Below, one piece after another: positions 2,747 to 64,000 of a stretch of DNA of 64,000 nt (position 1 is its first letter; the number at the start of each line of letters is the position of its first letter). The position numbers were made by a program, and so were the translations under genes. The notes beneath the pieces were generated by a model, which ran no database searches, had not been told where the DNA came from, and saw only the letters and a list, made by a program, of their open reading frames with translations. This stretch comes from an uncultured Gammaproteobacteria bacterium. GTDB taxonomy: Bacteria; Patescibacteriota; Patescibacteriia; Magasanikbacterales; UBA922. The stretch lies in assembly GCA_964447765.1 (NCBI GenBank), contig CAYUTO010000004.1, forward strand, positions 93,790-157,789. Reading direction: 5' to 3'.

Positions 2747-3133
2747 TTATTTCACTATCTCATAATGAAAAATTTTTTGCTCTTCCCCTTCGCCATAAAT
2801 ACTCACCTGTTCAAACTGTATGGGCGTATGTTCACTATCAACCCCATATTCAATACAATAGGCTTCTGCCCCACGGAGCATATGCAGCTGCTTCTTCCTT
2901 CCTACCGACCGCTCAGCACTTCCGTCATCAGCCGAACGATACTTTACTTCAATAAAACAAAGTGTTCGACCAAAATATGACTTAGTGTGCCAGGCCACAA
3001 TATCAATTTCTCCAAAACGTTTTGCAAAATTACGCCCCACGATTTCATAACCTGCTTGTAACAAAAAATCGGCAGCTATGCGCTCGCCTTTAGTGCCAAT
3101 TTTTCGTTTATCTTCCCTCCTTCTGAAATACAT
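2747..3133 (-). CDS. YraN-family endonuclease (UPF0102)
   Basis: GERIAADFL...YEIVGRNF...GEIDIV...FIEVKYR motif set of YraN/Holliday-junction-resolvase-like PD-(D/E)xK proteins. Confidence 0.7.
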   Translation of the reverse strand: MYFRRREDKRKIGTKGERIAADFLLQAGYEIVGRNFAKRFGEIDIVAWHTKSYFGRTLCFIEVKYRSADDGSAERSVGRKKQLHMLRGAEAYCIEYGVDSEHTPIQFEQVSIYGEGEEQKIFHYEIVK

Positions 3134-3202
3134 ACAAGACTGAAAATTGAAGATTAAAAATACAATCACAATCTTTAATCTTCAGTCTTCAATCTTTCCC
3201 GA

Positions 3203-3757
3203 CTATCCCCGAAACAATACAACTACACGATGGTACGGACCAGTCTTCGCATCTTCCTGAACACCAAAATTATTCTTTCGTGCCCATGAAATAATGTGCG
3301 AAAAATCAACCATGTTATTACTCGAAGGACCAAGTACTGATAATTTTTTTGTCCAATCGGCGACAATAATTCGGCCTTTTTCTTTGAGTACACGAGCAGC
3401 CTCAGCAAGCGGGGTATCGTATGAATCAAAGTGATACAACACGTTGATAAAAAAAGCAGTATCAAGAGTCCCTACAGGAATTGCCAACCCCTGTGTTTGC
3501 CCCAAATCAGCCCACACAGTCTGAACATTGTGAATCGCTTCAGTAGCTGCACGTTTTCGAACAGACTCAAGCACATCTTTGAGTACATCTACCGCATACA
3601 CAACACCGCGATCACCAACCATTTTTGATGCTGGAAAAACGACATGCCCCGTTCGACCACAACCCATATCAGCAATGTGCATTCCTTCGACAATTCCACC
3701 TTTAGCAAGTAGTGCGTATGGATCAATAAGATGTGTTCCCGTATGATATGTCATAGA
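3203..3757 (-). CDS. Class I SAM-dependent methyltransferase
   Basis: Motif I region MHIADMGCGRTGH, VYAVDV, and the downstream acidic/hydrophobic motifs of the Rossmann methyltransferase fold. Confidence 0.7.
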   Translation of the reverse strand, partial: SMTYHTGTHLIDPYALLAKGGIVEGMHIADMGCGRTGHVVFPASKMVGDRGVVYAVDVLKDVLESVRKRAATEAIHNVQTVWADLGQTQGLAIPVGTLDTAFFINVLYHFDSYDTPLAEAARVLKEKGRIIVADWTKKLSVLGPSSNNMVDFSHIISWARKNNFGVQEDAKTGPYHRVVVLFRG

Positions 3758-3834
3758 TAAAAGTCTATAAAGTCTCAAAGTCTATAAAGTCTCAAAGTCC
3801 GACTAGTAATGTATTTACTTTATGACTTTCGCCG

Positions 3835-3853
3835 TGCCTGCCGGCAGGCAGGA
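3835..3853. repeat. Copy of the CCTGCCGGCAGG palindromic element
   Basis: Intergenic, downstream of the small membrane protein gene. Confidence 0.5.
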
Positions 3854-3869
3854 CTTTTAGACTTGCTGA

Positions 3870-4118
3870 CTATTGTGATCCACCAATAAAAAGATTACCA
3901 AAAATTCCCACGATCATCTCACCCAATGCCCCAGTCATTCCAAGTATAGAGCCTACAATAAATATAATCCCTAAGCCTTTATACATTATACGAGTTCCTC
4001 CGCCACCAAATTTTGATTCAGCCCAATCGCTATATCCAAAATTTTCAATAAACCACTGGGTCTTTGCAACCATAAGAGTACCTAATACAATCACGAGAAC
4101 TCCTAGAAAATATTTCAT
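3870..4118 (-). CDS. Small 2-3 TM membrane protein, unknown function
   Basis: Hydrophobic 82-aa ORF followed by a palindromic terminator. Confidence 0.45.
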   Translation of the reverse strand: MKYFLGVLVIVLGTLMVAKTQWFIENFGYSDWAESKFGGGGTRIMYKGLGIIFIVGSILGMTGALGEMIVGIFGNLFIGGSQ

Positions 4119-7318: not shown

Positions 7319-8041
7319 TTATTTTTTCTTTGCAGTAAGCGAAAGAAATTTCGCTTCGAGACTACCGCCATCTTTTACAAAGTCAGACTTAGGAGCATCC
7401 GCAATAATTTTCCCCCCATCAATAATTGCAATTCGCTGGCAAAGCTCCTCAACTTCCTCAAGATAGTGAGAAGTAAACATAATTGTTTTTCCAGCCGCAT
7501 TAATTTTTTTCAAATATTCCCACAATTCAAGTCGAAGTTCCACATCGACTCCCGCAGTTGGCTCATCAAGAATCAGAAGTTTCGGATCATGAATCATAGC
7601 GCGTGCGAGAAGTACCCGACGCTTGAGCCCACCAGAAAGTTGCATAAAAGTCTTTTCTTTGTGAGATTCCAAATCCAAGATTTTAAAAAGTTCTTTTATT
7701 CTGATCTTTCTCTGTTCTTTAGTCATTCCATAATACCCACCTACATACCATAATATTTTCTCTGCAGGAGCAAAAATATCCATATTGAATTCTTGAGGAG
7801 CAAGTCCAACAAGCATTCGAGCTTCTCTATAATCTTTTTCAACATCCTTACCAAACACTTTAATCGTTCCAGAAGTAATCCGACCAATACCCGTAATAGC
7901 ACTAATCGTAGTAGTTTTCCCTGCCCCATTTCTTCCCAAAAAACCAAAAAACTCGCCTGGTTCAACGGTCAGAGAAATATTATCGACTGCAGTAGCTTCA
8001 CCATATTTCTTGGTAAAGTTCGTTATCTCAAGTGCGTGCAT
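7319..8041 (-). CDS. ABC transporter ATP-binding protein
   Basis: Walker A GRNGAGKTT, signature LSGGLKRR, Walker B LILDEPTAGVD; the ORF-track N-terminal extension reads through the palindrome at 8058-8079 and is rejected. Confidence 0.85.
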   Translation of the reverse strand: MHALEITNFTKKYGEATAVDNISLTVEPGEFFGFLGRNGAGKTTTISAITGIGRITSGTIKVFGKDVEKDYREARMLVGLAPQEFNMDIFAPAEKILWYVGGYYGMTKEQRKIRIKELFKILDLESHKEKTFMQLSGGLKRRVLLARAMIHDPKLLILDEPTAGVDVELRLELWEYLKKINAAGKTIMFTSHYLEEVEELCQRIAIIDGGKIIADAPKSDFVKDGGSLEAKFLSLTAKKK

Positions 8042-8987: not shown

Positions 8988-9530
8988 CTACCGAACAAAA
9001 CAGCCACGACACAAAGGTTCGTAAGTAAACGTGCCATCATCAGGAATGACCGATGGCATCCCACTAGTAAGAGCTTTCCCCAAACTATACACCTGCGTAT
9101 GCGTTGCAGAAAAATTCTTACAATCATTACACACTGCTCGCTTGTACTTCACATCACGAGGACCAAGCTCAAACAATTTTTTAGTCATTTCAAACAACTC
9201 ACCCCGATAATCAGTATCAAGTCCAGAGACAATCACATCAGTGCCTCGAGACAACAGTTCACCAATATATACGGCATCGGACGGATCAAACATGTGTATT
9301 TCATCGATACCCACAACAGAAAAATCCTTAGCCAAAATTTCTTTCAGAGAATGTATTTTTTCAGCTTCAAGAAAAAGCCCACTTCGTGACTCGATTCCAC
9401 TATCACGCACATTGCGAATAGGCTGAAAGAGCCCATACGAAGAAGTGGAATATTTGAGTGGTGAAAAATGACTGATAAGATCAAACGATTTTCCACTTTT
9501 CATGGGACCAAGAATGAGGGTGAGATGCAT
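8988..9530 (-). CDS. tdk: Thymidine kinase
   Basis: P-loop GPMKSGKS, conserved DEIHMF, C-terminal Zn ribbon CxxC...CxxC. Confidence 0.85.
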   Translation of the reverse strand: MHLTLILGPMKSGKSFDLISHFSPLKYSTSSYGLFQPIRNVRDSGIESRSGLFLEAEKIHSLKEILAKDFSVVGIDEIHMFDPSDAVYIGELLSRGTDVIVSGLDTDYRGELFEMTKKLFELGPRDVKYKRAVCNDCKNFSATHTQVYSLGKALTSGMPSVIPDDGTFTYEPLCRGCFVR

Positions 9531-10654: not shown

Positions 10655-11049
10655 ACACTCATTTTAGCAGCAATAAGATACACAATCACTGACACCGAAG
10701 CTGATAACACCGCCCCCCATATAAGATCAACGACGGTTACATTAAGCGGCCAGTCTCTGATTGTAGCAAGATTAGTCAAATCATAGGTGGCATAAGTGAT
10801 AAGACCAAACAATGCTCCATACAGCAGCGCATGCATCCACGATCCTTTGGCAAGCGCAGGAGAAATAACAAATACCACTAATCCGAAAATAAACAGAAGG
10901 TAAAATATAATTGCGGCAATCCAATTAATATTTGTTTTCATAAGAAAACCCAGATGCTCACGATAAAAATTTTTTGCAACCAACCCGAGCCATATCATGT
11001 CGATAGCAAAAAACACAGGCAATGCGATAGCATATAGTTTGATAAGCAT
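10651..11049 (-). CDS. DUF2177 family membrane protein
   Basis: 4-TM 132-aa protein with the characteristic AIDMIWLG...YDLTN pattern. Confidence 0.55.
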   Translation of the reverse strand: MLIKLYAIALPVFFAIDMIWLGLVAKNFYREHLGFLMKTNINWIAAIIFYLLFIFGLVVFVISPALAKGSWMHALLYGALFGLITYATYDLTNLATIRDWPLNVTVVDLIWGAVLSASVSVIVYLIAAKMSV

Positions 11050-11118
11050 ATAAATCAGTATATAAATAATATCAGCATCATATCAAAAAACCGCCCTGTA
11101 GGCGATTTTTTGATATTT

Positions 11119-11535
11119 CTATTTTGTATTCGCTTCAGCAGCAGCTTTCTCATCCATATAGAATACTTCCCACACATGACCATCCAAATCTTGAATATCC
11201 CGAGAATACATCCACCCATAATCTTGTGGGGGCATAGGCTCGGTAGCACCTGCCGCAAGTGCCTTTTCAAGGAAACTATCCACCTCTTCCCTACTTCCAA
11301 CTGAAAGGGCATTCAAAACCTCCACTTGTCGTGCAGCATCAACAATTTCTTTTTTGGTAAAATCCTTAAATCTATTTTCTACCATAAGCATGGCAAAAAT
11401 ATTCTCACCCATAATCATGCAAGTCGCATTTTCATCAGTGAATTGAGGATTGAAGGTGAATCCAAGCTGGGTAAAAAATTCAATCGATTTCTGTAAATCC
11501 TTTACCGCTAAGTTCACAAAAATTTGCTTAACCAT
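11119..11535 (-). CDS. VOC/glyoxalase-like family protein
   Basis: Paired beta-alpha-beta-beta-beta modules, glyoxalase-like sequence; terminator at 11084-11111. Confidence 0.55.
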   Translation of the reverse strand: MVKQIFVNLAVKDLQKSIEFFTQLGFTFNPQFTDENATCMIMGENIFAMLMVENRFKDFTKKEIVDAARQVEVLNALSVGSREEVDSFLEKALAAGATEPMPPQDYGWMYSRDIQDLDGHVWEVFYMDEKAAAEANTK

Positions 11536-11546
11536 ATAGTAAAAAA

Positions 11547-11945
11547 TTAAGAATTGAGTTTTTTGTCTGCAAAAATTGCTCGGTATTTATCCCAATACGC
11601 ATATCCGAGATATGCAGTAAGAACACTCACTATTACTCCCGTAACCACATATTGAGGTGCTACGGTTCCATTATACACAATAACCCCGATACAAATCGGT
11701 GCCAGGAATAACAACGCAAGTGCAGGCAAAAAACCCACAATAAGCATAAGACCCACCACAACCTCAGTGATTTTAATCAATTGAAAAATTCCCATATCCC
11801 ACAACTGCATCATAGTCGGAACCATAGGAGCCGGTACATTCTTCATTTCAGACCCAGCCATAAGCCCACTCACGCCACTAAAAAAAATAAACAACCCAAG
11901 GAGAATTCTAACAGTGACCACTAATTTACGATTTCGAAAATTCAT
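11547..11945 (-). CDS. DoxX family membrane protein
   Basis: Small 4-TM protein with DoxX-like pattern. Confidence 0.55.
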   Translation of the reverse strand: MNFRNRKLVVTVRILLGLFIFFSGVSGLMAGSEMKNVPAPMVPTMMQLWDMGIFQLIKITEVVVGLMLIVGFLPALALLFLAPICIGVIVYNGTVAPQYVVTGVIVSVLTAYLGYAYWDKYRAIFADKKLNS

Positions 11946-11963
11946 AAGCTACAGTATAAATAA

Positions 11964-12701
11964 CTAAAATAATGGATTAAGTACCTTCTCGATTTTCTCA
12001 AACCAGACTCGATACCCCTCGCCAGAAGGATGAAAATGATCGACTGAATAATATCTCGACACATCTTCAAGAAAGATATCATCAACACCTTCTTGAAGCA
12101 AGTCCACATACGTAACTTTCTTTTCAAAAGCAACTCGGAGATACAACTCACGAACCATTCTTGATTGACGACCGAGATACCAATCAATTGGCTCAGGGAA
12201 AATGGGAGCAGTACCAACATCCGCTGAATGTAAAATGATCACTTGTTTTGATTTTTCGGAAGCTACATCGAGAAGATCACTCAAATCTTTTTCAAGTTCA
12301 TCAAGTGGAGTCCGATGAGTAATATCATTTGCCCCAACCTGTATAAGCAAAAGATTATACAGATCAGTGTCCGTAGATACTCCACGCAATTTAGCAAGTG
12401 TATCAACTACTCTATCTCCACTCTTACTAATGTTAGTAATTTCAGCATGTGGGTAGAGTACACCCAGTCTGCCTGCAGTGGATTCTTCTGGCTTTGCTGC
12501 CCCAATTCCAAAGGCAGTACTATCACCTGCCACCAGTATTCGAGAATCTGGGTTAGGGATCTTCCTCTCAAAAGCGATGGTTGAACGGTATATTCCACGC
12601 CCACGATAAAGAAGCATTCCCACTCGCATGGAATGGTATAGGATTAACATAATCACTATTCCAAGAATAATTTTTATAACAATCGAAAAATCATCTTCCA
12701 T
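11964..12701 (-). CDS. SGNH/GDSL hydrolase family protein
   Basis: N-terminal TM helix; block I VAGDSTAFG (GDS), block III GANDI, block V DxxH. Confidence 0.7.
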   Translation of the reverse strand: MEDDFSIVIKIILGIVIMLILYHSMRVGMLLYRGRGIYRSTIAFERKIPNPDSRILVAGDSTAFGIGAAKPEESTAGRLGVLYPHAEITNISKSGDRVVDTLAKLRGVSTDTDLYNLLLIQVGANDITHRTPLDELEKDLSDLLDVASEKSKQVIILHSADVGTAPIFPEPIDWYLGRQSRMVRELYLRVAFEKKVTYVDLLQEGVDDIFLEDVSRYYSVDHFHPSGEGYRVWFEKIEKVLNPLF

Positions 12702-12744
12702 GATACCCCTTTATTTAAAAAAACTCTTGGTAAAAGCCTAACAC

Positions 12745-12770
12745 AAAACACTGGTATATACCAGTGTTTT
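12745..12770. terminator. Perfect palindrome aaaacactggtatataccagtgtttt (bidirectional terminator-like)
   Basis: 10-bp stem, A-run / T-run on either side. Confidence 0.55.
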
Positions 12771-12782
12771 TGATTTGAACTT

Positions 12783-12959
12783 ATGCCCCAAAAGTCTTAT
12801 TACGTGTACGCTTGCCCACAGCTACAGGATCTCGAAATGCTTTGGGAGGTGCTTGTAATTTTCGAGTATCAAAGGCATGTCCAGGCTTGTCTAATGAATC
12901 AGCCTTCAAACCTTCCTTCTTCAAGGCATCAAGATGATTTTTATACCATTTCTTCATAA
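12783..12959 (-). CDS. Putative 58-aa basic small protein (MKKWYKNHLDALKKEGLKADSLDKPGHAFDTRKL...)
   Basis: ORF below the track cutoff, with a perfect palindromic terminator immediately downstream (12745-12770). Confidence 0.3.
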
Positions 12960-13005
12960 AATTGTATTAAAAACTACGAAAACTAACCTACAATATATAT
13001 CACCA

Positions 13006-14313
13006 TTATCTCGCTTTGTCAAGATTGGCATCAAAGGCTTGTTTAAAAGATGACACAATATACGGAATATCACTAATCATAATAGACTCATTATTATTAA
13101 AGAACCCATTCGTACTCCAATTATTGGTACCAAATACCGCAGTATCATCGTCAACAAGTAACAAATGGTGATGTAAAAAAGAATTAAAATCTTCCTCACC
13201 ATAGACTTCCTGAATTTCAAGATTTCGTTTATGGTCAGTAAAAACCTGAAGATTCTCCAAACGATATAACTCTTTTTGAGAATTCAAAAAAGGAAACACG
13301 GAATCAGTCAAAGCATAATTAGAATCATCAGTGAGTATGGTTGTAGGCACACCCTCCTTACTTTTCTGAAGTATTGTCTGAGCAACAGTAGTATCAGTGA
13401 GATTCCAAATCAATACCTCAATTGTTTTTTTAGTGTCAGCAATGAGACCCAAAAAACGTGTACGCAAACCTACACTATTCGAGGGAGCAGGAGTAAACCA
13501 AATTTCGATATAACCTTCAGGATATCTAAGTAATGCGGCATAGGGATTACGATCAGTGAGAGCACCGCCAGTGTATAAACGATTGAATTCCCTACCAAAT
13601 ACATCAATAATTTCAGGACGAGTTGTTTCTAGCACAAAGCTTGGATCAAATTTCTCTTGGAGAGACGTAAAATTATATGAACCAAAAAAAAGTTTTGCCG
13701 ATACAAAGTTCCGATCAATAAGTATAAACTTATGATGCATCGATCCCCGAGAACTCTCAAAACTAGCATCGACGCGTGAAATATTCTGAGGAGGATTATA
13801 AAAAACCAGATCATGAGTTTCTTTTCGCTTCTCGCTCAAAAGCAACTTCACCGCAACACCACGATTGGCTGCACGATAGAGCGCATCTCGTATCAACGGA
13901 TGATCCATCGAATACACAGCGACCTCGATCTGCACCACTGCTTTGTCTATCGCGTCGATAATAAGTGACGAAAGATGTGTTTGCCCAAAATCAGTATTAA
14001 AATATAATTGTCCTGAAAAAGATTCGAGGATATCAATCGTCTCTCGAGGAGTAAACACCGACGACTGAGAAATGGTGTCCGTCGAAGACACTACTTGATC
14101 CAATGGAAGAGTATATTCTACAACACCCTCATCATGAGAACGCATATAGACAAAAGCAAAAACAAGTATCGATGCAAAAAGTAACAAAAATACAGGGATA
14201 AGCCAAACCAAAAAACGAGGAGTTGTTTCGGGAGAATTAAGAGATGGATCTAATTGTGGTGCCAAGTTCATGTCGTTGAGTGTAGGATAAATAATCATTA
14301 CTATTGTTCGCAA
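13006..14313 (-). CDS. Membrane-anchored phospholipase D family protein (two HKD-like motifs; cardiolipin-synthase-like or PLD nuclease-like)
   Basis: N-terminal TM helix; motif 1 HHKFILID...GSYNFT; motif 2 HHHLLLVDDD...GTNNWS, with His where the canonical Lys would sit; overlaps the upstream gene. Confidence 0.7.
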   Translation of the reverse strand: MRTIVMIIYPTLNDMNLAPQLDPSLNSPETTPRFLVWLIPVFLLLFASILVFAFVYMRSHDEGVVEYTLPLDQVVSSTDTISQSSVFTPRETIDILESFSGQLYFNTDFGQTHLSSLIIDAIDKAVVQIEVAVYSMDHPLIRDALYRAANRGVAVKLLLSEKRKETHDLVFYNPPQNISRVDASFESSRGSMHHKFILIDRNFVSAKLFFGSYNFTSLQEKFDPSFVLETTRPEIIDVFGREFNRLYTGGALTDRNPYAALLRYPEGYIEIWFTPAPSNSVGLRTRFLGLIADTKKTIEVLIWNLTDTTVAQTILQKSKEGVPTTILTDDSNYALTDSVFPFLNSQKELYRLENLQVFTDHKRNLEIQEVYGEEDFNSFLHHHLLLVDDDTAVFGTNNWSTNGFFNNNESIMISDIPYIVSSFKQAFDANLDKAR

Positions 14314-16003
14314 ATACCAACATGATTGAGGTTGGTAGTGCTTGATGTAATATATGTATCATATCAATAATGCGTGGGTATTGTAAATCAAGCCAAAAAT
14401 TATCAATAACCAATACCGGACGATGGGTTACTAGAGAATGCAGTGTGTGCAATGCAAAAGCCTGCAGCGGATTTTTGAGTACCCTATTTGCAGAAGTAGT
14501 ATAATTTCCATCGACTGAAACAAGTTCTACAATAGAAGGATACCGATTCATAATAAGCAGTGCCGAAGCAAATTCTTCCGTAGTAATATCATCTTTCACT
14601 TTACCCATAATACACTCCGCGAGAGTGCGATCTACCCGAAAATTGGGATCAAAAAAATACACATCAGTGCACACATTCTGCCAGCCGACAAACTCAAATC
14701 GTTCAGCATCAACCGTAATTTTTATCGCACGCGGATTATACGCAGCAACACCCGCAAATAATTTTGCCAATGAAGTCTTCCCGGTCATATTGGTACCAAA
14801 AAATAATACACGCTCACCCGGTTTAAAATCAAAACGCATATTTCGATAATACTCTCCTTCTGGAAAAAGCTTGGTCTTGTGACTACGGAAACCAAGTGTT
14901 TTTTCTCTCAGGTGAAAAGCCGTGTCTTTCACATAATTCTTACCTGATTGTACCACCGTCAAAAAAAGGCCCAACCGAGCAGGAAAAAGATATAACCCCA
15001 CTCGTGTAGCTTCGTTCAAGGCACGCGAAAAATAAATAAGTAACAATATAAATAAAAATCGTTCACCAATATGTTCGGTACCTAAAAAAGAAAAAAACGT
15101 TGTGGGGAAAAAATGGCTAAAAATCGAAACAACAATCAAGAAAATAAACACCATTTTAAAACCGAGACGTATCCAAATATCTCGACGTATACGAAAATAT
15201 GAATCAAACCAAACCAGCTTATCAAACTTTTCGAGAATGCTCCGCTCCTGCCCAAACATTTTTAAAAAACTAATATTAGTAGCATTGAAATCTATTTCTC
15301 TAATAATTTGAGAATAGAATGTCACCTCTTGCGAAACATAAAATCGAGATACGAGGTACCCACCAAAAAATAGAAGCACTGATGCAAGAATAAACGCGCC
15401 ACTCACCACAAGAACATGGTAATTACTCACATATGAAATCATGAGTATAATTCCCAAATACATGAGCCAGCGCCAAAATCCAAAAAATGTATTAGAGATA
15501 CCCTGTGTAACCAAAGGAATGTGATACGAAATCTTTGCAATAAGACTCGCGTGTTGTTCTGAGGATGTATGCTGAGGTGAACGACCAAGAAAATTCTTAA
15601 AAATACGACGCCTAATACTATTCGTCAAAAGAACGACAAATGATCGCTCATATTTGATAGCAAAAAAAGAATTGATCAAAAATACACCAATAAGTACTGA
15701 AAACAATAATATAAAATGACTGGAGAGCCATAGGCGAGTCCCGTCTGAAATCTGATCGCGACTAAAAATAATCAACGCAGATTCAATAATACCTTGGGAA
15801 AACAACAAAACCAACAAACCAATAATCAACAAAATATGTTTTTTTGAAAAATCCCGAAGATACTGATAATGATCTTTCGTAAATAAAACCTCCCTCCATT
15901 CACGACTCTCTTTTTTCGCCAACCGAAGAAGCCGAGCCTGCTCCTGCATCTTCTTACTAAAGATATGTGTGACTTTGTGTGTATTATTCTCGACCTCGTC
16001 CAT
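14237..16003 (-). CDS. ABC-exporter-like membrane protein with degenerate nucleotide-binding domain
   Basis: About 6 predicted TM helices followed by a Walker A GTNMTGKTS. The ABC signature is absent and Walker B reads VLVIDN, with the catalytic Glu replaced. The start overlaps the RT stop by about 20 nt. Confidence 0.6.
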   Translation of the reverse strand: MDEVENNTHKVTHIFSKKMQEQARLLRLAKKESREWREVLFTKDHYQYLRDFSKKHILLIIGLLVLLFSQGIIESALIIFSRDQISDGTRLWLSSHFILLFSVLIGVFLINSFFAIKYERSFVVLLTNSIRRRIFKNFLGRSPQHTSSEQHASLIAKISYHIPLVTQGISNTFFGFWRWLMYLGIILMISYVSNYHVLVVSGAFILASVLLFFGGYLVSRFYVSQEVTFYSQIIREIDFNATNISFLKMFGQERSILEKFDKLVWFDSYFRIRRDIWIRLGFKMVFIFLIVVSIFSHFFPTTFFSFLGTEHIGERFLFILLLIYFSRALNEATRVGLYLFPARLGLFLTVVQSGKNYVKDTAFHLREKTLGFRSHKTKLFPEGEYYRNMRFDFKPGERVLFFGTNMTGKTSLAKLFAGVAAYNPRAIKITVDAERFEFVGWQNVCTDVYFFDPNFRVDRTLAECIMGKVKDDITTEEFASALLIMNRYPSIVELVSVDGNYTTSANRVLKNPLQAFALHTLHSLVTHRPVLVIDNFWLDLQYPRIIDMIHILHQALPTSIMLVFANNSNDYLSYTQRHELGTTIRSIS

Positions 16004-17210
16004 AATGAAAATTCTTATAATACTGGTACAGTGAAACAATACCCACGCCCCCCATCACTTCCTTCAACAATCGTCGATGCTGCGGAGAATGTTGTCCATA
16101 GTAAAATTCAGTAAGAATATGAAAAAAATGTTCAGACACTATCCTTATTTGATTCACATCATTCACCTGTGATTTATTCTTGATTATCTCCTGAAATCGA
16201 GTATTAAAATTTGTATAGTTGCTACGCATGATATTTTTGAGAATACGTTTTTTCTTTGCTTCCGACTCATGCTTATAAAGCAGTAAACTCTTCCACTCCG
16301 ATTCAATACGGGCAATAAACCCATCTTCAAGACTAATACGTCCATTCGAAAAGCGATATCCCAAAAAAGAAAAAGTGTCTCTAGCAGACCCAATAAACAG
16401 TTTATCATTATTAAGCTTCAACCCCCTTTCATGGAGTTTAATTTTCATCTCTTTCTCTATAACTTTCAATTTTTCTAAATCCGGATCAAAGAGCGCAAGA
16501 TCATCCCCTACTCGTATATAAAAATCAGACTGACTATCATATCTGAAATCAAGGTCTGAAAGATAGAGATTAGCAAACAAGGCGATTAATGGCACACCTT
16601 GCACAATACCCTGACCGATCGTTTGTATCGAACCACGATCATACACCTGATTGAATATAAAAAGCTTCAATACTTCCACTGTTTCAGTATCCGGAAATAA
16701 TACTTGTAATTTTTCGACTAAATAATCCCGATCAATCAGACTCGAATAATTTTGCAAATCAATCACGAGGCAATGGTCCGTGGTAAAACGCCTGCGATAT
16801 CGACGAGCAAATAAATATGACGCGACATGTGGTGGTCTGCCCGGACGATAGGAAAACAAACGATCAGAAAAACTGCGTTCAAAAACGGGCAATACCACAC
16901 GATAAATTGCCTGTGCCTTGATACGCTCCTTGAGCGTATAAATAAAAATCTCACGAGTCTTGGTAGGATTATTTTTCTTTGGAATACGCAATAAAACAGC
17001 CGGTTCAATGGCTTTGGTATTAATTAACTCATCCTGAATAAGGCTTAGAAGATCATGCGAATTGACCTCATAATCCAATATTTTTTTATGGTCGAGGCCG
17101 TAATATCGAGATTCCTTACTGTCTTTGGCAAATTTTTGAACAATCTCTAGATATGCGGCTTCCAAATTACGCTTGGATATGATTTCTCTAAACATACAAT
17201 ATACAATCAC
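15984..17210 (-). CDS. Free-standing reverse transcriptase (group-II-intron-like/DGR-like RT family, no intron RNA context)
   Basis: RT motif 0 NLEAAY; motifs 1-2 IPKKNNPTKTREIFIYTLKERIKAQAIYRVVLPVFERSFSDRLFSYRPGRPPHVA; motif 3 VIDLQNY; motif 4 QGVPLIALFANLYLSDLD; motif 5 YIRVGDDLALF (catalytic DD); motifs 6-7 LKLNNDKLFI...FSFLGYRF. About 120-aa thumb-like C-terminus. Confidence 0.8.
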   Translation of the reverse strand: MIVYCMFREIISKRNLEAAYLEIVQKFAKDSKESRYYGLDHKKILDYEVNSHDLLSLIQDELINTKAIEPAVLLRIPKKNNPTKTREIFIYTLKERIKAQAIYRVVLPVFERSFSDRLFSYRPGRPPHVASYLFARRYRRRFTTDHCLVIDLQNYSSLIDRDYLVEKLQVLFPDTETVEVLKLFIFNQVYDRGSIQTIGQGIVQGVPLIALFANLYLSDLDFRYDSQSDFYIRVGDDLALFDPDLEKLKVIEKEMKIKLHERGLKLNNDKLFIGSARDTFSFLGYRFSNGRISLEDGFIARIESEWKSLLLYKHESEAKKKRILKNIMRSNYTNFNTRFQEIIKNKSQVNDVNQIRIVSEHFFHILTEFYYGQHSPQHRRLLKEVMGGVGIVSLYQYYKNFHYGRGRE

Positions 17211-17218
17211 TCCCTAAT

Positions 17219-17247
17219 ATATCTGACAGAAATCTATCAGATATTGA
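17219..17247 (-). promoter_or_regulatory. Stable hairpin (9-11 bp stem, 4-nt loop) just upstream of the RT ribosome-binding site
   Basis: Inverted repeat taatctgacag-aaat-ctatcagatatt located about 15 nt upstream of the RT start codon region. Confidence 0.4.
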
Positions 17248-17472
17248 TTATTTCCATTGAGGTCTTCCAAATAGCTTAACAACCTATTTGTTCTTTTCCT
17301 AAAATCGTCAAATTTCATGAAGCTAATGCCGATAGCTTTTCTTTTCATGAACCCGGACGACTGCCGACATCCTGAAACTCAGGTTTTAGGGAATGATTGT
17401 AAAGAGCACGTTAACCCCAAGAATAGCATATCTAGAAAGACAGGTAAACGCCAAATCTATGTTTCACACCCT

Positions 17473-17500
17473 TGATTTTTCCAGAAAATCTGCTAGGCTC
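17473..17500 (+). promoter_or_regulatory. Candidate sigma70-like promoter for the PNP gene (TTGATT-16nt-TAGGCT)
   Basis: -35/-10-like hexamers about 60 nt upstream of the AGGAGA RBS. Confidence 0.3.
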
Positions 17501-17558
17501 TCTCCATCACTCTTGCATATAGAGCAACGTGATCACAACCCAATCAGGAGATAGACGC

Positions 17559-18416
17559 ATGAAAAAAGTGTATACGCAGCTTCAGGAAACCGTGACACAC
17601 CTCGGCAAACGCCTCGGTAAGAAGCAAAGGAAACCACAAGTCGGCATCGTACTCGGCTCAGGTCTCGGAGAGTTCGCAAAGAGGCTCAAGGACCCCGAGT
17701 CGTTCCGCTACCAGGACATCCCTCACTTCCCCGAATCCACCGCTCCCGGCCACGCCGGAACCCTGTGGTTCGGCAAAGTCGGGAGTGTGCGAGTGGTCGT
17801 GATGCAGGGACGTCACCACTACTACGAGGGCAACACCCCGGAGCAGTGTGTCTATGGTCTCCGCACCATGATCAGCATGGGCGCGAGTACCATCATTCTC
17901 ACGAATGCGGCAGGCACGATCGATGATCAGGTGAGTCCGGGAGATCTTCGGATCATCTCCGACCACATCAACATGACCGGAGAAAGCCCGCTTCGTGGAC
18001 ACAATGACACGCGACTCGGACAACGCTTCGTGCCCATGAACGGTGCGTACGATGCAGATCTCCGAGCGCATGCGCTGAACACATGGAGTGAGGATCCGAA
18101 TGCAACGAATTCGATCAACCTTCACAGAGACGGTGTCTACGCGCTCATGGCCGGACCCGAGTACGAGACTCCTGCTGAAATCAACCGACTGAGAAATGCC
18201 GGCGCCAACCTCGTGGGAATGTCAACGGTCTTCGAGACCATCGCGGCCCGTCACATGGGCGCTCGCGTGTTCGCGATGTCGTGCGTCACGAACTACGCTG
18301 CAGGTGTGAAAGGCAGTGTACCAAACGAGCAGGAGGTGCTCGACACGGCACAGCAGTCGTCGAAGAAGTTCGTCGACTTCATGACACACTTCGTCGAGAC
18401 GATGCCACTCTCCTGA
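17559..18416 (+). CDS. punA: Purine nucleoside phosphorylase (PNP-I/PunA family), horizontally acquired (GC-rich)
   Basis: PNP family motifs GIVLGSGLG, ILTNAAG, MAGPEYET, GMSTVFE; AGGAGA RBS before the internal ATG at 17559; G/C-ending codons dominate, unlike neighbouring genes. Confidence 0.85.
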   Translation: MKKVYTQLQETVTHLGKRLGKKQRKPQVGIVLGSGLGEFAKRLKDPESFRYQDIPHFPESTAPGHAGTLWFGKVGSVRVVVMQGRHHYYEGNTPEQCVYGLRTMISMGASTIILTNAAGTIDDQVSPGDLRIISDHINMTGESPLRGHNDTRLGQRFVPMNGAYDADLRAHALNTWSEDPNATNSINLHRDGVYALMAGPEYETPAEINRLRNAGANLVGMSTVFETIAARHMGARVFAMSCVTNYAAGVKGSVPNEQEVLDTAQQSSKKFVDFMTHFVETMPLS

Positions 18417-18432
18417 AGTAGGCGGATGGGGG

Positions 18433-18461
18433 GGGGCAGGGTGCAAAAGCACTCTGCCCCC
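18433..18461 (+). terminator. GC-rich terminator hairpin gggggcagggtgc-aaaa-gcactctgccccc followed by an A/T tract
   Basis: 13-bp stem with one mismatch, directly after the PNP stop codon. Confidence 0.6.
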
Positions 18462-18564
18462 ATCAATTCATTATAAAAAAACAGAGCATTGAAGCTCTAT
18501 TTTTATTTTATCTACATTCAATTATTATCAAAGCTCCACGTCGTAGATAATGTTCGAACTTATT

Positions 18565-18897
18565 TTATGTCTTCTTCCACTGACCATCAATAAAGTCTGC
18601 GACATTATGGCCACCGACAGGAAAGCTGTCCGCATCATAAAAAACAACGTTAATAACACTATTTTTAGCTGATCCTTCTTTATAGTTACCTGCTCTCATA
18701 TATGTGTATTCTGATGTAGTACCGTCTTCCTCGGTAGTAGTAAGTTCTAATAAATAAAGACCTTTTTCATCTTCACGTCTTCTCGTTTCTTTATATTCTT
18801 TTTCTCCAATTATTTCTTTAACAATCGAAACTACTTCTTCTGACGAAGGGATATATTCTCTACTTCCTTCATAACCGCTTGGACCTGTTTCAGACAT
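18565..18897 (-). CDS. Hypothetical acidic protein (110 aa)
   Basis: ORF with native low-GC composition; no recognisable domain. Confidence 0.4.
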   Translation of the reverse strand: MSETGPSGYEGSREYIPSSEEVVSIVKEIIGEKEYKETRRREDEKGLYLLELTTTEEDGTTSEYTYMRAGNYKEGSAKNSVINVVFYDADSFPVGGHNVADFIDGQWKKT

Positions 18898-19003
18898 ATT
18901 GCATATATAAATAAATTAGCATGGTATAAATGTATCATACCAACTTAAAATAAAATATACGCTAAAAAAAATAATGACTTATTTAAGCCATTATTTTCAT
19001 CAG

Positions 19004-19075
19004 CTCCCAGACCTGGATTCGAACCAGGGACCCCCTCGTTAACAGCGAGGTGTTCTACCGCTGAACTATCTGGGA
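19004..19075 (-). tRNA. tRNA-Asn (anticodon GUU)
   Basis: Cloverleaf folds by hand: acceptor TCCCAGA/TCTGGGA, D-stem GTTC/GAAC, anticodon loop CTGTTAA, T-loop TTCGAAT; CCA not encoded. Confidence 0.8.
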
Positions 19076-52858: not shown

Positions 52859-52887
52859 TTGACAAAATGGCTTATTTATGCTATACT
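52859..52887 (+). promoter_or_regulatory. Consensus sigma70 promoter TTGACA-17nt-TATACT
   Basis: Perfect -35 and near-perfect -10 hexamers with a 17-nt spacer, about 165 nt upstream of the GC-rich ORF. Confidence 0.6.
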
Positions 52888-52894
52888 CTGCTGT

Positions 52895-53051
52895 TTACTA
52901 AAATACAGAACTTTACAAAAAGCTATAGATTAGTCCGTTTCCCCTGGAGTATCCGGTAATACTACGGGGTACAGCAGGGAAAACGGACAGGTAGACGGGA
53001 TTCCCCCGTGCATACCTACACATGGTAGCTAGTCCCGATAGGGAGGTGTCT
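52895..53051 (+). promoter_or_regulatory. GC-rich structured 5' leader; long imperfect hairpin plus SD-sequestering hairpin (candidate riboswitch/attenuator, class unknown)
   Basis: Outer stem gtccgtttcccctg/cagggaaaacggac (13 of 14 bp) enclosing agta...tact and cccc...gggg pairings; acggg-attcc-cccgt hairpin; ucccgauaggga hairpin overlapping the GGGAGG RBS. Confidence 0.4.
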
Positions 53052-53456
53052 ATGGTCGCTCAGCAGTACCAGTTCCAGATCCAGGCCACCGGCAAGAAGG
53101 TGGAGCTCAAGGACCTCGAGAACCGCACGAACGCCAAGCGCAACGCCTTGGCCAAGCGCGACGAGAACAAGCGGACGGGGCAGAAGCCCCGGGAGCTCCG
53201 ACTGCCCCCGCAGCTCGAGCCCAGGGGTCCCTACATCGACCGTGAGCTCATGAAGCCGCCGCTCGAAGGCGCCCTCGGCAAGGCGATCAAGCAGGCGGTC
53301 GTCGAGACCGCCAAGCAGGTCGCCCCCGACCTCGAGGAGGTGGGACGCATGGCCACGGCGGGCCGGGACAAGAAGGGTCACTTCGTGCCCCGCGAGACGA
53401 AGACCAAGGCCCAGGAGGCCTACGAGCTCTTGAAGCTCACCCGCCTCGCCGAGTAG
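53052..53456 (+). CDS. Hypothetical lysine/glutamate-rich protein, horizontally acquired (very high GC3)
   Basis: GGGAGG RBS 7 nt upstream of ATG; nearly every codon ends in G/C, while the opposing-strand ORF is L/G/R-rich antisense noise. Confidence 0.5.
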   Translation: MVAQQYQFQIQATGKKVELKDLENRTNAKRNALAKRDENKRTGQKPRELRLPPQLEPRGPYIDRELMKPPLEGALGKAIKQAVVETAKQVAPDLEEVGRMATAGRDKKGHFVPRETKTKAQEAYELLKLTRLAE

Positions 53457-53587
53457 ATCAGCCGCAACATCACCACATCCGAGACCTAGGAGACCTCGGA
53501 CCAGCTTGGCCACTGACTTGCAAAAGTTCAGTGGCCATCATCTCAGGATCACATCAAAATTGGTGGATCGTGAGATGAAAAATAAAA

Positions 53588-53614
53588 AAACAGCTTAATT
53601 AAATTAGGCTGTTT
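53588..53614. terminator. Bidirectional terminator aaacagc-ttaattaaattag-gctgttt
   Basis: Perfect 7-bp stem, A-run/T-run flanks; between convergent genes. Confidence 0.55.
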
Positions 53615-53651
53615 TATTTTTTCATTACTAGACAACCAGAAAACCAGATAA

Positions 53652-60688: not shown

Positions 60689-60805
60689 AATCTAGGCGCC
60701 GACCTACTCTCGCCTTGCGACTACCATTGGCGCTGAAGGGCTTAACTGCCGTGTTCGGGATGGGAACGGGTGGACCCCCTTCGCAAAAAGCACCTAGATT
60801 CTATA
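60689..60805 (-). rRNA. rrf: 5S ribosomal RNA
   Basis: Reverse complement reads ...gtccacccgttcccatcccgaacacggcagttaagccc...ggtagtcgcaaggcgagagtaggtcggcgcc with pairing 5'/3' ends. Confidence 0.75.
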
Positions 60806-60874
60806 CTCAGTTATAATTTTGAAGTAATAAACACAATAATTGCAGTAGCATTCTTCGAAACACAACTCTGTGTT

Positions 60875-64000
<3,126 letters not shown>

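Follow-up and report, generated by a model that had tools for sequence, protein, structure and literature searches.

A 64,000-nucleotide stretch of contig CAYUTO010000004.1 (hereafter the window), from an AT-rich, ultra-small bacterium of the Candidate Phyla Radiation (CPR), contains a purine nucleoside phosphorylase (PNP) gene that departs sharply from its surroundings in composition. The coding sequence, at 17559–18416 on the plus strand, has a GC content of 0.573 and a third-position GC content (GC3) of 0.689. The 60 other long open reading frames (ORFs) of the window average 0.41 in GC and 0.34 in GC3 (standard deviation 0.09), placing the PNP gene ~3.9 standard deviations out in GC3; the corresponding figures for the window are 0.40 and 0.34. 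Measured in 200-nucleotide steps, GC content is 0.32–0.42, climbs to 0.51–0.61 between ~17500 and 18500 and returns to 0.34. Outside the ribosomal RNA operon (60691–64000), a single other stretch of the window exceeds 0.50 (52900–53650). The composition of the gene is thus foreign-like, and the analysis below leads to one of two verdicts: either the gene was acquired long ago, or a constraint specific to it shapes its composition.

A first-pass annotation of this DNA had described a GC-rich gene in an AT-rich genome, with G or C at almost every third position. The first statement is confirmed, and the anomaly is sharply bounded. The second is right about enrichment and overstated in extent, since GC3 is 69% and not ~100%. 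The preference is general across synonymous classes: C is chosen over T at 0.70 (0.18 in host genes), G over A at 0.65 (0.39 in host genes), and four-fold degenerate sites are also enriched. Two simple causes were rejected. Head-on orientation does not account for the excess, as other plus-strand genes of the window have normal GC3 (0.35–0.44), and a translational preference for NNC codons alone does not, since G over A is enriched too.

The locus in related genomes

Homologs and possible donors were sought in a protein database of 5.8 billion sequences, in one genome per GTDB species, and in JGI metagenome contigs, IMG/VR, plasmids and phages. Window positions 10679–18558 are collinear, at 89.6% nucleotide identity over 7.9 kb, with a contig (L055) from an NCBI metagenome-assembled genome (MAG) named Candidatus Magasanikbacteria. 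The same contig carries the top match to the PNP protein in the protein database (94% identity). Matches at 89% and 66% follow in a Logan assembly (L057) and an ENA assembly (L056), and all remaining ones are at most 53% identical and spread across many phyla. The window PNP and these three homologs constitute the four-member clade discussed throughout. By these relationships the host is Magasanikbacteria-like, not a member of the Saccharibacteria. The first-pass annotation had argued from the habit of Saccharibacteria of living on Actinobacteria; that argument does not apply to a window so similar to a Magasanikbacteria MAG.

The locus is conserved in all three relatives, where the gene again lies upstream of tRNA-Asn, SIMPL, DoxX and trpS. 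It is also equally anomalous there, with a GC3 of 0.69–0.70 among AT-rich neighbor genes. The first-pass annotation had held that transfer would be contradicted if the closest homologs all came from related low-GC CPR genomes of similar composition. The three closest do come from related low-GC CPR genomes, to the letter, but the gene stands out just as strongly in those three genomes.

This conservation also settles the question of assembly. The concern raised at first pass was a chimeric contig. For this, or for a contaminating GC-rich fragment misassembled into an AT-rich contig, the sharp change of composition is the sole point in favor. The GC-rich gene lies between AT-rich flanks with identical junctions in the window and in three independent assemblies from different sources (the NCBI MAG, collinear over 7.9 kb, and the Logan and ENA assemblies), and the noncoding junction sequences are conserved among the related loci. 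A chimera is therefore excluded, and we give such an artefact a negligible probability.

The gene has long been at this locus. Between window and L056, amino acid identity is 65% for PNP, 69% for SIMPL, 70% for DoxX and 78% for TrpS. In this comparison the four-fold sites have diverged by 1.3 in PNP and by 0.9–1.8 in the flanks; against L055 the values are 0.21 in PNP and 0.24–0.38 in the flanks. PNP has co-diverged with its flanks at both depths; it was therefore already at the locus in the common ancestor and is no recent import. Any transfer would be ancient, preceding the split of the sampled Magasanikbacteria-like genomes, and since its arrival the gene would have been inherited vertically under purifying selection.

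Organization of the locus

We propose that the gene is the core of a self-contained cassette of ~1.07 kb (17468 to ~18560) with its own weak promoter, a structured leader, a 3' hairpin and a terminator. This proposal is one part of the joint explanation set out below, which as a whole we hold somewhat more probable than not. The elements, together with the boundary repeat and the adjacent tRNA gene, are as follows.

17472–17499, plus strand: putative cassette promoter, TTGATT, 16 nucleotides, TGcTAGGCT (extended −10); read from the sequence
17506–17533, plus strand: stem-loop ATCAC-(TTGC...GCAA)-GTGAT in the 5' untranslated region (UTR); alignment with compensatory changes
17546–17551, plus strand: Shine-Dalgarno sequence AGGAGA, 7 nucleotides before the ATG; read from the sequence, conserved in 4 of 4 loci
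17559–18416, plus strand: PNP gene, 285 amino acids, trimeric PNP-I/PunA type, GC 0.57, GC3 0.69; family models, PDB matches, active-site residues and the ratio of nonsynonymous to synonymous divergence (dN/dS)
18432–18461, plus strand: GC-rich 13-base-pair hairpin GGGGGCAGGGTGC AAAA GCACTCTGCCCCC in the 3' UTR, with one G-U pair and no U-tail; fold and covariation
18462–18482, plus strand: AT-rich 21-nucleotide spacer ATCAATTCATTATAAAAAAAC; almost invariant in 4 of 4 loci, including L056 (66% protein identity)
18483–18509, plus strand: canonical intrinsic terminator, probably bidirectional (A-run, AGAGC-ATTGAA-GCTCT, T-run); terminator scan
18533–18557, plus strand: repeat resembling the tRNA-Asn 3' end, GCTCCACGTCGTAGATAATGTTCGA (motif GCTCCACGTSGTRGAYRATGTTCGA), right cassette boundary; found once in the window (chance expectation 0)
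19003–19075, minus strand: tRNA-Asn (GTT), anchor of the variable region; ARAGORN and Rfam

The left edge of this unit is defined by comparison. Homology of the window to L056 and L057 starts abruptly at 17468, so that the conserved upstream segment measures 91 nucleotides (17468–17558). Further upstream, the window and L055 carry genes for a reverse transcriptase (RT), an ABC-like protein and a PLD protein, and L056 and L057 carry other genes. Because the 91-nucleotide segment travels with the gene despite these different neighbors, promoter and leader belong to the cassette. The first-pass view of a native ribosome-binding site and promoter, behind which the gene had integrated, is not supported by this pattern.

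Within the segment, the putative promoter is almost invariant in 4 of 4 related loci, though upstream of 17468 L056 and L057 carry unrelated DNA. It presumably drives the cassette; a consensus scan did not list it because its −10 element is weak. The inner stem of the leader varies in a compensatory manner, being TTGC/GCAA in the window, ATGC/GCAT in L056 and TTGT/GCAA in L057. Upstream of the stem-loop, a CUCUCC sequence can pair with the Shine-Dalgarno sequence, and the minimum-free-energy fold pairs UCUCC with GGAGA. The stem-loop may be regulatory.

At the 3' end, the region 18414–18515 folds at −41.7 kcal/mol (z = −5.8), and the stem of the GC-rich hairpin is preserved through compensatory changes in L056 (GAGGGCAGAGTG/CACACTGCCCTC) and in L057. 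This hairpin had been taken at first pass for the gene's own GC-rich terminator. The hairpin itself is real, but it lacks a U-tail and the canonical terminator follows at 18483–18509, which makes it an unlikely terminator. At the position equivalent to the canonical one, L056 carries another hairpin with a T-run. Rfam yielded no credible match for the leader, the 3' hairpin or the leader of a second GC-rich island of the window (below), and two more distant PNP loci, L144 and L062, share none of the noncoding cassette elements.

The encoded enzyme

The gene product is predicted to be an intact trimeric PNP of the PNP-I/PunA type. Its identification as a PNP, already made at first pass, is borne out by NF006054 (purine-nucleoside phosphorylase; 320.5 bits, cutoff 218). 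The 285-residue protein also matches PF01048 (PNP_UDP_1) at 165 bits and TIGR01697 (PNPH-PUNA-XAPA) at 292.5 bits (cutoff 197.1), with residues 3–281 covered. The best PDB match is 8swu (E = 3e-71, 243 bits). Bovine (1a9o) and human (1pf7) PNP follow at E = 1e-60 to 4e-63, the mammalian enzymes scoring 209–217 bits, and the alignments run through the GSGLG, RxH, NAAG, YET, MST and TN motifs. The weakest PDB matches are the enzymes of M. tuberculosis (1g2o, 146.7 bits) and Cellulomonas (1c3x, 119.5 bits).

What the protein shares with PNP-I, PunA and mammalian PNPs is therefore a full-length match above the NF006054 and TIGR01697 cutoffs and the catalytic motifs. It differs in scoring below the equivalog cutoff of TIGR01700 (PNPH, inosine/guanosine-specific PNP I; 275.2 against 293.35) and below that of the actinobacterial-type TIGR01698 (PUNP; 235.8 against 302.6), in its identity of at most 53% to any protein outside the clade, and in one active-site residue. 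In mammalian numbering the active-site set comprises Ser33, His64, Arg84, His86, Tyr88, Ala116, Phe/Tyr200, Glu201, Met219, Ser220, Asn243 and His257, and 11 of the 12 are kept. These include the 6-oxopurine determinant Asn243, so specificity for inosine and guanosine is expected. The departure is at His257, which contacts the ribose 5'-OH in mammalian PNP. All four clade members have Glu at the equivalent position, as part of the motif VPNEQEV. Among 143 aligned sequences this replacement is confined to them, and 123 of the 143 have His. Among the four clade members dN/dS is 0.14–0.21; the gene is therefore constrained by purifying selection and presumably functional.

The enzyme would split inosine or guanosine, or the deoxy form of either, by phosphorolysis, giving the free base (hypoxanthine or guanine) and (deoxy)ribose-1-phosphate. 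In a CPR bacterium, for which reliance on scavenged nucleosides is presumed, these products could enter purine salvage and the breakdown of pentoses. We infer this metabolic role from family membership and from the neighbors of related PNP genes, which include a PGM/PMM-type mutase (L059, L062), rpiB/rpe (L144), a pyrimidine-nucleoside phosphorylase (L060) and a cytidine deaminase (L145). The window also encodes guanylate kinase, a DeoC/LacD-family aldolase and, as annotated at first pass, tdk (8988–9530, PF00265). PNP-I enzymes, genes of deviant composition next to tRNAs and horizontal gene transfer (HGT) into CPR genomes are all known already, and the function of this PNP is ordinary.

A role as an anti-phage effector was considered and rejected: no PADLOC model matches the protein, and L056 and L057 have the gene but lack the RT island. 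PNP-domain anti-phage effectors, which are fused to or partnered with sensors, share with the window the PF01048 fold and a nearby RT/PLD island. The window PNP differs from them in being a stand-alone, full-length protein of housekeeping type, and the island is not linked to it in L056 and L057.

A GC excess that has not decayed

A foreign gene is expected to drift toward the composition of its host, fastest at synonymous sites. The PNP gene has not done so. Its four-fold sites are almost re-randomised between window and L056 (p = 0.60, saturation 0.72), and GC content at these sites (GC4) nonetheless stands at 0.66 in the two genes and at 0.31 in the flanks. With the decay factor derived from the flanks, 0.30 per lineage (confidence interval 0–0.44), an ancestor of 100% GC4 would now be at 0.52–0.62. 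Polarised third-position changes on the window and L055 branches number 22 from GC to AT and 13 from AT to GC. Host-like neutrality predicts that 81–84% of them run from GC to AT and is rejected (P = 0.002–0.008), and stationarity of the PNP composition is not rejected (P = 0.09). The excess has thus not decayed as neutral amelioration predicts.

A calibration on other PNP loci agrees. We related PNP codon-position GC to local genome GC at 118 ordinary loci (r = 0.88 for positions 1 and 2, r = 0.97 for position 3) and read from it the GC content of the genome to which the window gene would conform. Positions 1 and 2 give 54% and position 3 gives 57%. A third-position value at least as high as that of the other positions is the reverse of partial amelioration.

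Something specific to the gene may hold the composition in place. The shift in GC equilibrium would correspond to a weak force favoring G/C, with a scaled strength of roughly S = ln 4.3 = 1.5, which might be weak selection on synonymous sites or mRNA, or GC-biased conversion. The enzyme itself is not the reason. Across 136 PNP loci the gene exceeds its flanks in GC by +0.03 (standard deviation 0.036), against +0.17 to +0.19 in the four-member clade (+0.17 for the window gene). Ordinary PNP genes follow genome GC closely (r = 0.94); therefore the enzyme does not demand GC. No GC enrichment is seen in the window's ribosomal genes or its other core genes.

A second genome shows a similar excess. 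In L144, positions 3039–3881 encode a PNP 53% identical to that of the window, with GC 0.56–0.57 in a contig of GC 0.34, an excess of +0.235. Its flanks are different (rpiB/rpe/trxB on one side, an unknown gene on the other), and it has its own AT-rich promoter region. The neighboring TrxB is 64–71% identical to named Magasanikbacteria proteins. L144 is thus a second Magasanikbacteria-like genome and an independent case of a GC-rich PNP in an AT-rich relative at another locus. The next-nearest relatives, in L059 (Uhrbacteria), L062 and L053, exceed their flanks by +0.10 to +0.12.

These data raise the possibility that no transfer took place at all. PNP would then be an old resident of the CPR lineage whose GC-richness is gene-specific and held by selection or biased conversion, and the anomaly would be silent on origin. 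The excess at a stationary level in four lineages fits such a history, as do the GC-rich gene of L144, the smaller excesses in L059, L062 and L053, and the failure to find a donor-like sequence among 5.8 billion proteins. We nevertheless consider it unlikely. Ordinary PNP genes track their genomes, so the enzyme makes no demand for GC, and the composition of ribosomal and core genes speaks against a general expression-linked bias. CPR PNPs form no supported clade, the Uhrbacteria PNP is no outlier among its neighbors (GC3 0.81 against 0.71–0.82), and the gene sits in a variable, repeat-bounded array beside a tRNA gene, a setting typical of acquired DNA.

A variable region beside tRNA-Asn

The tRNA-Asn gene lies 586 nucleotides downstream of the PNP gene in the window and 105 nucleotides downstream in L057, and it is also found downstream in L056. 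Between gene and tRNA lies a 27-nucleotide repeat, GCTCCACGTGGTGGACGATGTTCGAGC, which holds two palindromes, CCACGTGG and GTTCGA[A/G]C. Its first 16 nucleotides mirror the tRNA-Asn 3' end (GCTCCnnnnnnTGGAY). Copies occur at 18533–18557 of the window, at 7852–7876 of L055, and at 2590–2641, 3433–3484 and 5192–5243 of L056. The three L056 copies are identical over 27 nucleotides despite differing surroundings, and each follows a terminator hairpin at a cassette border. This suggests a functional site, perhaps for recombination. L056 also has a 65-nucleotide direct repeat, 94% identical, that brackets the PNP cassette exactly, and in L057 the sequence found upstream of the repeat runs straight into the true tRNA. 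The exact 27-nucleotide motif, tested as a phage att site, was not found in IMG/VR.

The neighbors of the cassette comprise the RT, the ABC-like protein, the PLD nuclease, a GDSL lipase, an ORF without matches, SIMPL and DoxX, and neighbor genes on both sides differ between relatives. The picture is of a region next to tRNA-Asn that may serve as an accretion zone of cassettes. A variable region beside tRNA-Asn, bounded by repeats resembling the tRNA 3' end, fits arrival by integration, and the cassette most likely entered by an old integration into this array.

The resemblance to tRNA-linked genomic islands, which insert at tRNA 3' ends and generate direct repeats, is partial. The cassette adjoins tRNA-Asn, deviates in composition, lies where gene content varies between close relatives and is separated from other cassettes by repeats and terminators. 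It differs in having no integrase or excisionase, in consisting of a single ~1-kb gene, in its partial repeat match, and in being stable across deep divergence and not sporadic.

Source of the gene

Outside the four-member clade, the searches found no close relative of the gene. JGI metagenomes, IMG/VR, plasmids and phages yielded nothing closer than 49% identity, and the PNP of an Acidimicrobiia genome, found in the search of one genome per GTDB species, is 38% identical. One apparent close relative, P0004, was rejected because its high score came from a tandem or duplicated PNP at 42–43% identity. All 60 bootstraps of a neighbor-joining tree recover the four-member clade as monophyletic. The outside sequences nearest to it include several that lie in GC-rich surroundings. 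In the Uhrbacteria (CPR) locus L059, for example, the PNP lies beside a PGM/PMM-type mutase and is compositionally at home, its GC3 of 0.81 falling among the 0.71–0.82 of its neighbors.

Combining these observations, we judge that the balance tips toward an old integration from a moderately GC-rich (~55% GC), non-actinobacterial lineage, followed by vertical descent with GC maintained by a gene-specific force. The donor lineage could be another CPR bacterium. The data establish what the gene encodes, that it is intact and under purifying selection, its synteny, its co-divergence and its lack of amelioration; the transfer itself, the mode of integration, the metabolic role and the reason for the lasting GC excess are inferred. 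This reading keeps part of the first-pass claim of a probable horizontal acquisition: foreign-like composition and an integration-type setting, with tRNA-Asn, repeats and a variable region, support it, and recency fails on the shared locus and on divergence equal to that of the flanks.

Several observations weigh against this explanation. No donor was found, the best identity outside the clade in the protein database being 53%, and no sister group of the clade exceeds 15% support in the 60 bootstraps of the neighbor-joining tree; the case for transfer thus draws on composition and genomic setting and has no phylogenetic basis. Active maintenance of the GC excess, if real, would make composition a much poorer indicator of transfer. 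The amelioration test rests on a two-state model with near-saturated sites and ~100 four-fold sites, and the GC4 expected at the upper confidence bound (0.62) is close to the observed 0.66. As to integration, the repeat resembles the tRNA end to a moderate degree (~11 of 17 positions plus TCGAAC), and the ORFs scanned in and beside the cassette include neither an integrase nor any other mobility gene. Folding of the leader does not reach significance (z = −1.0). Finally, the change from His257 to Glu could mean altered or reduced activity.

The first-pass annotation had offered a more specific history, taken here to mean a recent event: the gene would have come from a high-GC actinobacterium on which a Saccharibacteria-like episymbiont lives, and would have been inserted behind a promoter already present in the recipient. 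The GC-rich composition and 3' hairpin would suit such a donor, and the logic of nucleoside salvage is reasonable. Other findings contradict it. The host is Magasanikbacteria-like, the promoter is part of the cassette, and the gene is common to relatives and has co-diverged with its flanks to a synonymous divergence (dS) of ~1.3. Actinobacterial PNPs are the poorest matches, as the TIGR01698 score, the PDB ranking of 1g2o and 1c3x and the Acidimicrobiia identity all indicate. The implied source GC of 54–57% is well below the 65–70% typical of high-GC Actinobacteria. We regard this history as very improbable.

A study of HGT in Patescibacteria (mSystems 2025, PMC12455944) reports that streamlined CPR genomes gained metabolic genes and islands by transfer and that old events escape compositional detection. 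The window differs: its event, if there was one, is old and still compositionally obvious, the opposite of the expectation quoted there (its ref. 27, Lawrence and Ochman 1997). A striking GC anomaly is here no sign of recent transfer and no pointer to the partner of an episymbiont-like bacterium.

Other GC-rich units

The second GC-rich island of the window, at 52925–53540, contains a 134-amino-acid ORF (53052–53456, plus strand; GC 0.67, GC3 0.95) without a Pfam match; of the 5.8 billion protein sequences just two are homologous to it. A TrmB-type regulator flanks it on one side and the DeoC/LacD-family aldolase on the other, and it follows a consensus-like promoter (TTGACA...TATACT, ~52859–52889) and a conserved GC-rich leader of ~120 nucleotides. 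In its counterpart on L143 the noncoding flanks differ by 11–12%. Between the two, the ORF has a nonsynonymous divergence (dN) of 0.37, a dS of 0.41 and a mosaic pattern of divergence, and 10 of its 12 synonymous differences are exchanges between G and C; its GC3 in L143 is 0.99.

GC-rich segments (GC 0.54–0.59) without Pfam matches also occur in the tRNA-Asn region of L055 (8001–8573, minus strand) and L056 (1625–2146 and 2797–3291); for the ORF called at L056 1625–2146, the reading frame or the strand may be mistaken. These GC-rich cassettes and the second island of the window show no similarity to one another.

Such units invite a different account of the PNP gene, recurrent import. Here alleles would be replaced again and again from a GC-rich pool (a host organism, other CPR bacteria or an unsampled element) through the conserved cassette flanks or repeats, and residence would be too short for amelioration. 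The cassette is bracketed by repeats, exactly so in L056, and other GC-rich cassettes lie in the same region of L055 and L056. As L144 illustrates, AT-rich relatives can acquire GC-rich PNPs elsewhere in the genome, and the ORF at 53052–53456, with conserved flanks and a far more divergent mosaic interior (GC3 0.95–0.99), has the pattern expected from allele swapping. Yet the synonymous divergence of PNP equals that of its flanks at two depths (0.21 against 0.24–0.38 and 1.3 against 0.9–1.8), which replacement would leave to coincidence. No GC-rich source allele above 53% identity appeared in the protein, genome, metagenome, viral, plasmid and phage collections. The AT-rich promoter and terminator flanks lie within the conserved unit, so the donor would need the same odd mosaic. 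We rate recurrent import as distinctly unlikely.

A further idea, which we offer tentatively and do not expect to hold, extends the gene-specific force of our preferred explanation to more than one gene. AT-rich Magasanikbacteria-like genomes may contain a few separate transcription units that an active process keeps GC-rich over the long term, be it mRNA or codon selection or GC-biased conversion against a pool of unseen GC-rich alleles. PNP would count among them, with one version at each of two loci and a stationary composition equivalent to ~55% GC across a dS of ~1.3. The fast-evolving ORF at 53052–53456 would be another, and it shows a more extreme form of the same behavior. Were this true, compositional outliers in these genomes would not be simple fossils of transfer.

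The persistent lack of amelioration, echoed by the second GC-rich gene, is the only feature of specialist interest here, and it is mildly puzzling: contrary to the standard model, the anomaly persists through near-saturating synonymous divergence in several lineages. If the behavior is general, composition-based detection and dating of HGT would be misleading in CPR genomes, and certain transcripts would be subject to a so far unrecognised constraint on their nucleotide composition.

Neighboring variable segments

Two further segments near the cassette vary between relatives. At 18541–19002, an insert of ~460 base pairs separates the tRNA-end-like motif from the true tRNA-Asn. It carries a 110-amino-acid ORF (18565–18897, minus strand) with no family match, is absent in L057 and is replaced by other DNA in L055.

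On the other side, 13006–17210 (minus strand) holds three co-oriented genes that are not at this position in L056 and L057, with a right junction at 17467/17468. They encode a PLD-family nuclease (DrmC-like in PADLOC), a 600-amino-acid membrane protein with a weak ABC-ATPase match, and the RT. The RT scores 130 bits with the generic RT model of PADLOC, 118 with RT_UG26 and 114 with a group II RT/maturase model, short of the cutoff of 300, and Rfam found no group II intron RNA. By their content, the three genes look like an inserted defense-type island.

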